A stretch of 61,483 bases of DNA, counting the filler, from Globobulimina sp. (taxonomy: Eukaryota): the NCBI GenBank assembly GCA_003354225.1. It is 19 parts of 19 records of this genome, joined end to end, with 100 filler letters (N's around TTAATTAATTAA, not from the genome) between each part and the next. Parts side by side here need not be neighbours in the genome. Positions count along the whole stretch, not along the records: positions 6,487 to 9,628 come from PIVH01003597.1; 18 more parts are not named here. The stretch is one strand, 5' to 3'. A program made the translations under genes and the position numbers. Numbering within the stretch: the stretch's first letter is position 1; the number at the start of each line of letters is the position of its first letter. Below, piece by piece: positions 6,641 to 42,043 of the stretch. The notes beneath the pieces are model-generated. The model made no database searches. It was not told where the DNA came from and saw only the letters and a list, made by a program, of their open reading frames with translations.

Positions 6641-6793
6641 TATTCAATTTGTTTAACTTTCTTGACAATAAACGTGTTTCCGAAAACACAGTTTTTGGCC
6701 TTGGGGGCTCCCCACCCCCCACCTCCGAGCCCCCTCGGCCAAAAACTGTGTTTTCGGAAACACGTTTCTTGTCTCGAAAAAACAAATTGAATA
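6641..6793. repeat. Long imperfect inverted repeat (foldback/MITE-like hairpin)
   Basis: Arms 6664-6710 and 6727-6773 are complementary at 44 of 47 positions around a 16-nt C-rich loop; outer TATTCAATTTGTTT (6641) pairs with AAACAAATTGAATA (6780-6793). Confidence 0.9.
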
Positions 6794-7379: not shown

Positions 7380-9523
7380 ATGCCGAAAAATACAAATTTA
7401 AAAAAGAATATATCGAAGAAGAAGAAAAAAGAAACACGTAACCGCACCACAAAAAACAAAAAATTATTTGCTGTATTGCATGAACGTAATGGTCGACGTA
7501 AAAATGGTGGACAGAAACCAAAAGGTCCAGTATGGAAACAGTTTAAAATTACATTAATTAATCCAAATCTACCTGCATATAATAATAATATTTTAAGCTG
7601 TCAATGTAGACATTGCAGTCATATGGTATTAAAAACTGCATTGACAGCAATTCGTGTATCAACGTTACGAAACCATGGGTTAAAATGTAAGCATTTCCCG
7701 CATGAGTCCAAATGTATGTTTTTTATAATAATATTTTAAACAAAAACGTTTGCAAATATAATATACAAAAATAGTGGAAATTATCCACAAAAATGAACAG
7801 ATATTAGCGAAACGGATACCATACTCCGTATATCAAGATGTAATGCATGGCAACACAAAATTAAATCGACGTATTTATGGACATCCTTCGGATGTTATTG
7901 GTGGTGATTTATATGGTTTATTATGTGCTGCGCCGAGTGTGAGAGATAATATTATTTTAAATGTCACCAACAGTGGTGATTTAAATTTAGGTTCACTGTC
8001 AACACATTCTGGTGATGCTGCGTATGGTGGCATATTAACATTGCCTACATTGGCAAACAACCGATGATGATGACAACAAAAGCCAGTCTGTACCAGCACC
8101 AGCATCCGAAGCAGAAGCAGCCGATTTCCCTCAACAGCAAACTCCAGAAACTACATTGTTGCGACGTCGCTGTGCAGTTGCAGACATACCATCACTTTTA
8201 GCATTGCCGCCGTTATCAATCTCTCAATCATTGAAAGACATGCCTATGAAACCTGGTTTGCATTGTTTCAAATTTGTATCAGTTTGACGACTCTGAAAAT
8301 CATAATTTTAACAAACCGATTTTTTGGTTTCGATTTTGTACAGAGCCTGTTCCTGAATTTAAAGAATTTAAAATGAATAAATTTTGTCAATGGTTTGCAG
8401 AAAAAGTTGCAGATCAAAACAAAGTGGATGCTCATTGTTTCAATTATATTTTAGGAACATTGTCAAATTGGAATAATTTCAAGACCCCTGAATATGACTC
8501 GTTAATTAATGTATTATTTGATTATATTATCAAATATAAAGAAAAACCATTGCAGCCACCAGCAGTAAAATTAACTGGTGAAGTAATGAATAATCATTTG
8601 CATCAAATGAGAGACCAAATGAATGGTTTTATGATTAAATATAAACATTTTGGTTTGCATGTCGATGAATGCACAAAGCGACGATTAAGTTTAGTTTTTA
8701 ATTTTTTGGGTTAAATATTTTTTTGTTGTTGTTTGTAATCAAAAATCCTATGCAGGTCAAGCGTTACATATTGTACGTACTGGCAATTATGGTATTACGT
8801 TTATTTTAGATGTCTCCTGCTTATCGTTAGACAAATCTGCCAAGCAATTATTCGGTTTAACTAAATCGATTTTGGGTTTTTATATTTCTCAGGGATGTGT
8901 ATTGGATGTAACTATTAGTTAAGAACATGTTATAAAATATTTATTATCGCAGACAAGTTATTTTTTAACGCAAACTCGCATAGAAATAATAACTTATCTG
9001 CGATTATAATAATTTTTTGACGCATAATAATAACTTGTCTGCGGATATAATAACTTGTCAGCGATTTTTTTTATGCGAGAATGCATTACTAAATATTTTG
9101 AAACTTAAAAATAAATATTTTGACATGTAAACAGCTGATAACTGCAACAAAGCCATAAGTTATCGTAATATGGTTGCTAACAATTGGGATTCTGTAAGCA
9201 CGGGTGGATTTGTGCATGTTTTGGCCAATACAGCGGGTAAATTAGGTGGATGGATGGAAATGGCGGAAGAGATTAAATCTGCGAGATCTTTAGCACATAA
9301 ATTTTATAATACCGGTGCCAGCTGTATTTATAAGGAGATAACTGGTATGAATACTGATGATGTATTGCAGTGTTGTTATAGTGGTAACGTAATGGAATGG
9401 AATCAAACTGATGGTATTTTACATTGGATATTATTGAATAAAGATGTTATTATGGCATGTTTGAATGATAAAAGAATTAATAAATTTATTAAAAAAGAAG
9501 TGAGAGATAAATATTTACAGTAG
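7380..9523 (+). mobile_element. hAT-superfamily transposase gene (BED zinc finger + RNase H-like core), intron-containing, frameshifted and truncated
   Basis: BED finger (GPVWKQF...CRHC...STLRNHGLKC). Predicted introns 7713-7774, 8689-8755 and 8918-9134 join FGLHVDECT, VTITDNCNKA, GGFVHVLANT (CxxH-like position) and MEWNQTDGIL (TRWNS-like). Two +1 frame changes near 8057 and 8250-8287. Confidence 0.7.
8947..9064. repeat. Four copies of a 16-mer AATAACTTGTCTGCGA (one inverted, three direct) inside a predicted intron
   Basis: Reverse copy 8947-8962; direct copies 8988-9003, 9029-9044 and 9049-9064, each with one mismatch. Confidence 0.85.
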
Positions 9524-9555
9524 TGTTCCCGATAAGAGATACGCATATTAGTACT
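9518..9555. mobile_element. Putative Tc1/mariner/pogo-like terminus of an inserted element (copy 1)
   Basis: TA|CAGTAGTGTTCCCGATAAGAGATACGCATATTAGTACT, 37/38 identical to 42006-42043; supplies the stop codon that ends the hAT ORF. Confidence 0.65.
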
Positions 9556-9728
9556 AATATATATATTATACTGCTAATATATTGAATAAATGGTGGACCT
9601 GTCAAGGGATAATATATTTTTTTTTTTTNNNNNNNNNNNNNNNNNNNNNNNNNNNNNNNNNNNNNNNNNNNNTTAATTAATTAANNNNNNNNNNNNNNNN
9701 NNNNNNNNNNNNNNNNNNNNNNNNNNNN

Positions 9729-38977: not shown

Positions 38978-40642
38978 ATGGCAGCTTCAGATGGTTTTGA
39001 GTACTCTTGCGATTATTGCCGTGTGTCATTTGCTAGAGATATCCACATTCAATGCGCCGAATGCCGCGACATTCGCCTATGTTTGACATGTTTTAGCTAC
39101 GGCAAAGAGTTACCGCCCCATCATAACAACCATCATTATTATATTGTTGAATATATTACAAAATCAATATTCAACATCGATAAAACTAAAAAAAAGAAAA
39201 ACAAAAACAATAAAAACGGAGTTAAACACAAATGGCCCGGACACGAAGATATTTTATTATTAGATGGCATTGAAAAATATGGCTTAGGGAATTGGAGCAA
39301 AATTGCACAGCACATCGGCAATAACAAAACATCGAAACAAACCGAATTGCATTATTTACAGACTTATTGTCATCAAAATACAGAGAGTTACATTTCTATA
39401 TTCAATCATAAATATCCTTACACTCAAAAACCACACAAAAACGTATTAGCCGAAGACGAAGATATTATAAACAGCGACAACGACGCCGACGGCGAAGATG
39501 ACAGTGATATTGTAATTATATCCAACGATAAGCCCAAAAAGAAAAAAGCTATGAAAACCAGCAAAAAAGACAAGAAGAAGGACAAAGAGAAGGATATCCC
39601 AATTCATTTAAAAGCATATCCCGACGCTCGTTCATACATTGTGGGTACTCGCGACGTGCACCAATTTGTCAATTATTATCCGTATCGGCACGAATTCGAC
39701 AGCGAATACCAAGAATTGGCTGAGTTATTAATCTCTGATCTGACCGGCACGGATTTAATAAACAATAAAAATATAAACTTACTCAACAACATCGTGCAAT
39801 ATGACGGCATCATCAAAATCCGGAACATTATCAAAAATTTTATATTGGACCGGAAATTGATGCTATTTCATGACAAGCCCTCAACGAAAAAAGTCAAGGA
39901 TGTGAACGGGCCAATGACTGCACAGCAATGTCGGCGATTATTTATCGAGAAATACCAGCCAATTTGCAAATATTTTGCATCCACAAAGGAATATTTGCAG
40001 TTTCTGGAAACCAATGTTTTGATTCGATCGCAGAGATACGACATTGACCAATATGTGGAATGCAGGAAGGCGGGCTGTCGAACCATGGAAGATATCAATG
40101 CGCGAAGACGTGTGTTTGAAGAAGGAAATAATTATTCCCATTCGCGGAGCAATTATAACCATCGGAGGAATAAACGGAGCAAAAAGAAAAGAACGCGCTG
40201 CAATTTGCAGATTATTGACGACTCCGACTCAGAGAATGAGTTTACAGACAACCCACTGTTGTTTGAGGAGCCTCAATTAAAAAAACACAAGAAAACGAAT
40301 AAAAATGCCGGGAAACAGAATAAATTGAATTTGAACAAGCGCTTTTTATCCAAAATGAAGAAAACAAATATTAATGACAACTATGATGACAATATGACGG
40401 AATATGATATATTTAACCAGCCGTCGTATTTGTTGCTGTCGATGGCGGAGAGAGATTTTGTAAGTCATTTGAATATATTGCCGACGCAATATATGCAGTA
40501 CAAATCGGTTATTTTAATGGAGAATACGCGATATGGACTTGTCAAAAAAAAGGAATTAAGGAAATATTTCCCTCATTTGAGTGACCATATAATTCATGAT
40601 TTTTGTGAGTTTTTTCAACGCTTAAAATGGATTCAATTGTAA
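38978..40642 (+). CDS. ADA2: Transcriptional adaptor ADA2 (ZZ, SANT, SWIRM)
   Basis: CDYC...CAEC...LCLTCFSYG..H...H.Y; W..HEDILLLDGIEKYGLGNW..IA.HIG; PYRHEFDSEY...AELLI; C-terminal LLS..E...LP..Y...K. Confidence 0.93.
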   Translation: MAASDGFEYSCDYCRVSFARDIHIQCAECRDIRLCLTCFSYGKELPPHHNNHHYYIVEYITKSIFNIDKTKKKKNKNNKNGVKHKWPGHEDILLLDGIEKYGLGNWSKIAQHIGNNKTSKQTELHYLQTYCHQNTESYISIFNHKYPYTQKPHKNVLAEDEDIINSDNDADGEDDSDIVIISNDKPKKKKAMKTSKKDKKKDKEKDIPIHLKAYPDARSYIVGTRDVHQFVNYYPYRHEFDSEYQELAELLISDLTGTDLINNKNINLLNNIVQYDGIIKIRNIIKNFILDRKLMLFHDKPSTKKVKDVNGPMTAQQCRRLFIEKYQPICKYFASTKEYLQFLETNVLIRSQRYDIDQYVECRKAGCRTMEDINARRRVFEEGNNYSHSRSNYNHRRNKRSKKKRTRCNLQIIDDSDSENEFTDNPLLFEEPQLKKHKKTNKNAGKQNKLNLNKRFLSKMKKTNINDNYDDNMTEYDIFNQPSYLLLSMAERDFVSHLNILPTQYMQYKSVILMENTRYGLVKKKELRKYFPHLSDHIIHDFCEFFQRLKWIQL

Positions 40643-41350: not shown

Positions 41351-41529
41351 AATTAACATCATTTAATAGTAGTGGAGCACATTCAAGACATTTATTATTA
41401 ACAAAAAAAAATGCTCACATCATCTTCAGATTGTATTTAGTGCGACAACAAAAATAAAAAGTTTATATTTTTATATAAACCAACAAAAACGAAACAAAGA
41501 AAAACAAAAAGCTAAAACATGTCGTGTTA

Positions 41530-42005
41530 TCAAGCTTGTGCTTGTGCTGCAACAATATCACTTCTATAACTCTCTAATGCTTCTGGCGAATGTGTGTTTG
41601 TAGCACGGTTAACTGCAATTGCTCTGTCAATGAGAGTTATTGCTTCATTGTGATCTTTAAAATCTTGGGATAATACCACAGCTAACTCAGCCAATGCATC
41701 AGTATAATCAGGTTTAAGTTGAATTGCTTTTCTTAATTCTTGAACCGCAAACTTTGATAATCCTTTAGTTGCACTGTATGCCATGCCTAAATTACAAAGA
41801 TACAACGGATCGTTTGGGCTGAATCCAACTGCTTTTCTCCTGTGTGAGATGTGTTGCATTAGGGGTCTCCGATATGTACTGAATTTTAAAAAACTCTGTC
41901 AAACACCTCTTTACTTTTTAATCAGTTCGACAGCTTTACGCTTTTTGCCAAAGATGGTAAACCCCTTTGCAAGCATGTCCCCAAGAGAGCAGCAAAAGTT
42001 ATTTA
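41530..42005 (-). CDS. TPR-repeat protein, 5' part cut at an inserted element
   Basis: NFCCSLGDMLA...AVELIK, a short intron, then AVGFSPNDPLYLCNLGMAY...AIQLKPDYTDALAELA. Confidence 0.75.
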
Positions 42006-42043
42006 CAGTAGTGTTCCCGATAAGAGGTACGCATATTAGTACT
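42006..42043. mobile_element. Putative Tc1/mariner/pogo-like terminus (copy 2)
   Basis: 37/38 identical to 9518-9555, preceded by TA, at the contig end. Confidence 0.65.

Follow-up and report, generated by a model that had tools for sequence, protein, structure and literature searches.

The window, that is, the whole stretch of 61,483 nucleotides analyzed from the Globobulimina sp. assembly GCA_003354225.1, was composed of 19 separate contigs of about 3.14 kb each (3138 to 3143 bp, G+C 0.27 to 0.39), with spacers N44-TTAATTAATTAA-N44 between the contigs. Typical eukaryotic genes were found on its long open reading frames (ORFs) by Pfam searches, namely, RhoGEF, MyTH4, Arf, APC10, CK2-beta, RasGEF, and an Ada2-like adaptor. 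A 38-mer was present at positions 9518 to 9555 and 42006 to 42043 with one A/G difference, two matches against none expected from 100 shuffles. It begins 111 bases from the right end of contig W3 (6487 to 9628) and 38 bases from that of contig W13 (38903 to 42043). The initial annotation had described the same 38-mer at or near the right ends of two unrelated contigs, and this description holds, a 44-bp stretch of 97.7% identity being the single similarity between W3 and W13 in an all-against-all BLAST of the 19 contigs. In W3, the TA dinucleotide at 9516 to 9517 adjoins the end of an element that occupies 9518 to 9628 on the plus strand, breaks off after 111 bases in a run of T at the contig end, and is 99% identical over 105 bp to positions 1092 to 1196 of a contig found elsewhere (L001). 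In W13, the TA at 42004 to 42005 precedes a second member on the plus strand (42006 to 42043), which meets the contig end after 38 bases and is 100% identical over 40 bp to two further contigs (L004 and L005).

The element in W3 interrupts a putative hAT/BED-like transposase ORF on the plus strand (9131 to 9523), the stop codon of which, TAG at 9521 to 9523, is the TAG of the element's own CAG-TAG; the element was thus rightly said to supply the premature stop. No match to this ORF was obtained with Pfam, PDB sequences, or a word-based homology search, and a full HMMER search returned two relatives. Residues 2 to 129 align without gaps to residues 483 to 610 of one of them (P0002, 921 residues; 28% identity, pairwise E value 2e-13), which extends 311 residues beyond the aligned part. 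With tblastn, W3 was collinear with P0002 residues 37 to 114, 324 to 429, and 479 to 610, and the last match stopped at the final base of the flank. No Pfam family was assigned to either relative; the nearest Atlas clusters were of the BED-finger, hAT-dimerization, and ZBED types. The insertion at 9517/9518 therefore truncates the ORF as had been claimed, and the cut gene is itself a transposon gene, while its assignment to hAT is a supported lead from the HMMER relatives and Atlas clusters rather than a proven membership. Near the left end of the same contig, a 153-bp imperfect palindrome (6641 to 6793, 79%) with a G/C-rich center was noted, unrelated to the element.

In W13, the element lies in a different repeat. 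Four sequencing runs, all in the form of Logan contigs of mixed DNA, were mapped onto this contig, and in run X1 the depth was 540 in the bin 41843 to 41947 and 93.6 at 41979, compared to 5 to 7.5 in the unique flank. Contigs of X1, X2, and X6 join the region at 41857 and 41866 with flanking sequence other than that of W13, one copy, at a depth of 54.7, carries a 2-bp deletion that disrupts the frame, and a second copy with 80% identity was found at 403 to 473 of another contig (L018). Positions 41859 to 42005 thus form repeat R2, which is the terminus of another multi-copy element, and the insertion at 42006 is nested within R2. The ORF containing tetratricopeptide repeat (TPR) matches lies beside R2 on the minus strand (41530 to 41898; TPR_11, E value 2.5e-09, best stretch residues 51 to 77), and these matches are internal to the ORF and away from the element. 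The 43-codon stretch adjoining 42006 had no TPR or other Pfam match at an E value of ≤1. The earlier view that the element abuts a TPR frame in mid-repeat, and with it a TPR exon at 42006, was rejected on the Pfam blank and the repeat evidence; R2 and the nested element are located upstream of the TPR ORF or within one of its introns. R2 starts with TTAGGGGTCTCCGATATGTACTG and resembles the terminus of another element family, flanked by TA or TTA, the tip of which shares a CCGATA core with the element studied here. Elsewhere in W13, an in-frame 63-nt GT..AG intron (39387 to 39449) was observed within the apparently continuous 567-codon Ada2-like ORF; it was exactly skipped by one X2 contig, and relatives in X6 and X8 carried 15 other letters in place of 84.

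The initial annotation had proposed a search for further copies with the 38-mer, and 13 further contigs carry the family. The search covered two small collections and one run set. Contigs L001 to L005 (1002 to 1517 bp) were found among metagenome contigs with the first 21 bases of the element, L006 to L008 came from a scan of prokaryote genome contigs and all three belong to one MAG labelled gammaproteobacterial (G001, 3.1 Mb), and the diverged members L012 to L016 were recovered from G001 by a mismatch-tolerant pattern search and by a DNA search in which a complete copy served as query. A reversed control pattern gave no matches in G001, and the family had no matches in viral contigs. Together with W3 and W13, the set comprises 15 insertion sites in 15 contigs. 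A 15-base core with up to 2 mismatches, applied to all contigs, yielded 17 element ends, and these were aligned together with one tip-deleted copy (alignment A1, 18 end sequences). The family occurs in two record sets (PJEL01... and PIVX01...), both of which may derive from one sample. Although it carries a gammaproteobacterial label, G001 contains AT-rich, eukaryote-like contigs (L006 to L008 and L012 to L018), one of them with tRNA genes. Those carrying the family are probably mis-binned DNA of the host, which is an AT-rich, gene-dense eukaryote.

A TA dinucleotide directly precedes all 17 ends, against a background TA frequency of 0.089 and in unrelated flanks, and the element boundary is TA|CAG. 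The TATTTA prefix reported earlier therefore holds for its TA; its TATT part is due to chance, positions -3 to -6 varying among the 17 ends, and the prefix was ruled out as element sequence by the lack of any pattern in the ten bases beyond the TA. Two copies were complete, at 777 to 944 of L012 (168 bp) and at 862 to 1041 of L014 (180 bp), both with TA on either side, and no duplication longer than TA fits either of them. A check for TA target duplication and a search for an inverted partner end had both been suggested; the TA...TA flanks were present at 2/2 complete copies, and so were inverted ends, with 42 of 46 bases matching in L012 and 33 of 35 in L014. The L012 copy folds into one long hairpin (-37.9 kcal/mol, z -9.7), as good as which none of 200 shuffles scored. 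The minimal members are accordingly 168 to 180 bp long and non-coding, with inverted ends of 35 to 46 bp.

The conserved tip, to which the 38-mer at 9518 to 9555 (plus strand) belongs as part of the terminal inverted repeat (TIR), comprises about 31 to 32 terminal bases shared across subfamilies and is followed in the alignment by an AT-rich variable stretch. An inner motif, ATGGTGGACCTGTCAAGGGAT, lies at about position 75 to 95 in most ends that extend far enough, among them that of W3 (9590 to 9610, plus strand), and recurs in the center of the complete copy in L012; at 9590 to 9610 it might serve as a second transposase-binding site. Longer members have only about 31 to 50 terminal bases in common, mostly together with the inner motif. 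After about 50 bases, the canonical copies diverge into an A-type (W3, L001, and L003, and with variations L006, L007, and L016) and a G-type (W13, L002, L004, L005, and L008). Among the contigs carrying the family, none had both types together, and they may be separate subfamilies or may mark opposite ends of a single element. The complete copies of L012 and L014 represent diverged subfamilies, and no complete canonical copy of the W3 or W13 type was present among the contigs found. In L006 (2.7 kb), an A-type interior is linked to a subterminal region of the L007 type.

Several individual arrangements were observed in addition. At about 211 to 300 of L016, an A-type copy without element bases 6 to about 30, with TA|CAGTA joined straight to TTAGTACT, is an internal tip deletion. 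Positions 537 to about 1100 of L013 contain a possible longer copy, the match of its right end being limited to CACTACTG|TA; the ends of the same contig (1 to 138 and 1429 to 1566) are 99% identical inverted copies, a foldback or an assembly artefact. A 673-bp unit in L002 (535 to 1207) has 47-bp inverted repeats (98%) built from the inner motif of the family, with a G-type insertion 17 bp past the unit. The ends of L012 (1 to 119 and 1221 to 1339) are 100% identical over 119 bp, and the cluster of six tRNA genes on this contig may therefore form, together with the element, a tandem or circular unit of 1220 bp.

Very high abundance was evident from run X1, in which the summed contig depth reached 13,598 over 41948 to 42043, against 5 to 7.5 in the unique flank; this crude measure is not a copy number and means very many copies, with no more exact reading. 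Six X1 contigs with differing flanks lead into the tip (agreement 0.52, the loose ends lying before 42004), and seven exit from it after base 31 to 36 into other interiors, from which it follows that many families have only the tip in common. Besides the W3 and L001 pair, near-identical copies were found in L002 and L005 (100% over 98 bp), and the family was apparently active recently. All ten ends found with the exact 21-mer lie within 38 to 406 bases of a contig end on the element side, and the assembler crosses no canonical copy. The combination of high copy number and near-identical tips would cause assembly to terminate within every canonical copy. The picture of a young, multi-copy, TA-bounded element that breaks the assembly was thus upheld by the TA ends, the inverted ends, the X1 depth, and the position of 10/10 ends near contig ends.

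Insertions were mostly outside long ORFs. A count of exonic versus non-coding insertions, as had been proposed, gave two of the 15 sites at which a long ORF is clearly broken (W3 and L004) and an ambiguous third (L008). In L004, the element adjoins a 261-codon Thr/Pro-rich, membrane-anchored frame that has no Met in its first ~240 codons, and in L008 it adjoins an RCC1-like ORF whose start Met may lie 7 codons from the junction. At least four of the 15 sites (W3, W13, L002b, and L006) are inside other repeats or transposons, and the copy in L012 sits between tRNA genes. An open run of at least 100 codons adjoined 3 of the 17 ends, compared to 61% of 5000 random TA positions in the window contigs, a rough null in that these exceed the short, repeat-rich contigs in length and gene density. 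The statement that two of two insertions were exonic was not sustained, given that the W3 insertion cuts the ORF of another transposon and the W13 insertion lies in a repeat.

The 38-mer is most probably, at about 85%, the outer part of the TIR of a large non-autonomous MITE family of the Tc1/mariner type that is moved in trans into TA sites. A CAG start is typical of the ends of Tc1/mariner/pogo-type (ITm) elements. The earlier assignment of the TA|CAGT end to the Tc1/mariner kind is in line with TA at all 17 ends and with the TA flanks and inverted ends of the two complete copies. Features of Stowaway-like MITEs were present, namely, TA on both sides, terminal inverted repeats, and small, non-coding, multi-copy members; TA duplication and conserved TIRs are given as characteristic of Stowaway MITEs in PMC3626606. 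An ITm transposase encoded elsewhere would bind the tips, and perhaps the inner motif, excise the element, and paste it into a TA, which would be duplicated. Mobility and TA duplication are inferred from the structure of the copies.

An autonomous partner was sought in G001 with the Pfam families DDE_3, Transposase_1, and DDE_1, and no ITm family exceeded the cut-off. One DDE_3 match on a long contig scored 26.1 bits against a cut-off of 28.6, and the blank for Transposase_1 is weak in that control genomes gave no match either. A Pfam scan of 40 of the 67 window ORFs of at least 110 codons found no transposase (the other 27 were short, overlapping, antisense, or covered in an earlier Pfam scan), and L006 had no ORF longer than 146 aa. 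These blanks in G001 and in the 40 window ORFs are what would be expected if the TIR element were moved by a transposase outside the Tc1/mariner/pogo group or by an unknown one. This is unlikely, given the CAG start and the strict 2-bp TA flanking each complete copy at either end, which excludes a 4-bp TTAA and by which a 3-bp TWA duplication was ruled out. A technical origin of the 38-mer as an adapter, a vector, or a chimeric contig end, suggested by the position of both window copies at contig ends, has a negligible probability; it is refuted by the complete copies located in mid-contig with TA on both sides, and the family is moreover carried by the two record sets, perhaps of one sample, and continues from its tip into conserved interiors.

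The removal of the element at the DNA or RNA level, raised speculatively in the initial annotation, found no support. That the family is tolerated in genes through precise removal at TA by the host, from DNA or from RNA, is very improbable; if true, it would amount to programmed genome editing of transposon origin in an organism other than a ciliate. At the DNA level, the copies would be germline-limited, IES-like DNA cut precisely at TA in the forming somatic nucleus or genome, so that exon insertions are tolerated. The ends are indeed TA-bounded, and TA|CAGTAG fits the Paramecium consensus TAYAGYNR; the fit noted earlier is correct in itself and loses its diagnostic value, since any Tc1/mariner-type end gives the same fit. 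According to PMC9942856, IESs of ciliates have TA boundaries similar to the terminal repeats of Tc1/mariner elements. MITE-type IESs are known in ciliates (PMC9942856 and PMC8354472), and in some foraminifera the germline and somatic nuclei are separate and a chromatin 'Zerfall' occurs (PMC11606643). One ORF is broken by an insertion, perhaps two or three (W3, L004, and possibly L008), but that in W3 belongs to another transposon, the sites within other repeats or transposons are at least 4/15, and the deficit of long open runs beside the ends (3/17 against 61%, on the rough null) also speaks against this origin. Free colonization of coding exons, as expected of IESs, was not found. The only element-free sequence in the mapped runs was an X1 contig that matches the flank as far as 42005 and continues with 17 non-element letters, but it lies in the multi-copy R2, where a paralogous copy is the simplest reading. 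IES-like elimination is accordingly judged a very slight prospect. Hardly any probability is likewise given to an introner that is spliced from transcripts and harmless in exons. AG|GTACGC is found at element positions 20 to 27 of the G-type copies, and weak donors do occur in this genome, such as GTTACA in the 63-nt intron of W13. The tips, however, are CAGTAG...CTACTG|TA, with a 3' tip that lacks AG and no GT...AG pair, so that neither the ends of the element nor its target duplication supplies splice sites; the ORF-cutting A-type copy in W3 reads GAGATACGC, without the inner GT, and splicing at the inner donor would retain 21 bases of the element and a TA in the message. Positions 41423 to 41842 of W13 were uncovered by contigs of X2, X6, and X8, of which X6 and X8 are presumed to be RNA, and no contig of these presumed RNA runs spanned the junctions.

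The Tc1/mariner-type MITE family was compared with known systems. Like the Stowaway-like MITEs BRAMI-1 of Brassica (PMC3626606) and those of Aedes (PMC3814204), it is flanked by TA at either end and has conserved, AT-rich terminal inverted repeats (about 33 to 46 bp), minimal copies below 200 bp, no coding capacity, a hairpin-forming structure, and a high copy number. Unlike these, its host is a probable foraminifer, and its many subfamilies have unrelated interiors with about 31 common terminal bases and the inner motif; the family is classed by structure, and its Tc1/mariner descent is putative. Ciliate MITE or mobile IESs, that is, the pogo-derived MITE of Blepharisma (PMC9942856) and the mobile IESs of Paramecium (PMC8354472), are likewise TA-bounded, non-autonomous, and present in thousands of copies with ITm-like ends, some of them in coding sequence. 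In ciliates, a domesticated transposase eliminates such copies from the somatic DNA; for the family described here, excision found no support, and insertions are mostly outside long ORFs. Transposon-derived introners are similar as small TIR elements able to sit within genes and differ from the present tips, which have no GT...AG pair.

The MITE family is an ordinary kind of mobile DNA. In the collection of papers searched, none combined foraminifera with miniature inverted-repeat, and the family provides a well-defined example from a lineage in which mobile DNA has scarcely been described. It accounts for the breaks of the assembly at these points and flags eukaryote-like contigs in a public MAG labelled gammaproteobacterial. 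Its conserved 31-base tip provides a handle for finding the active transposase and for asking whether copies are excised.
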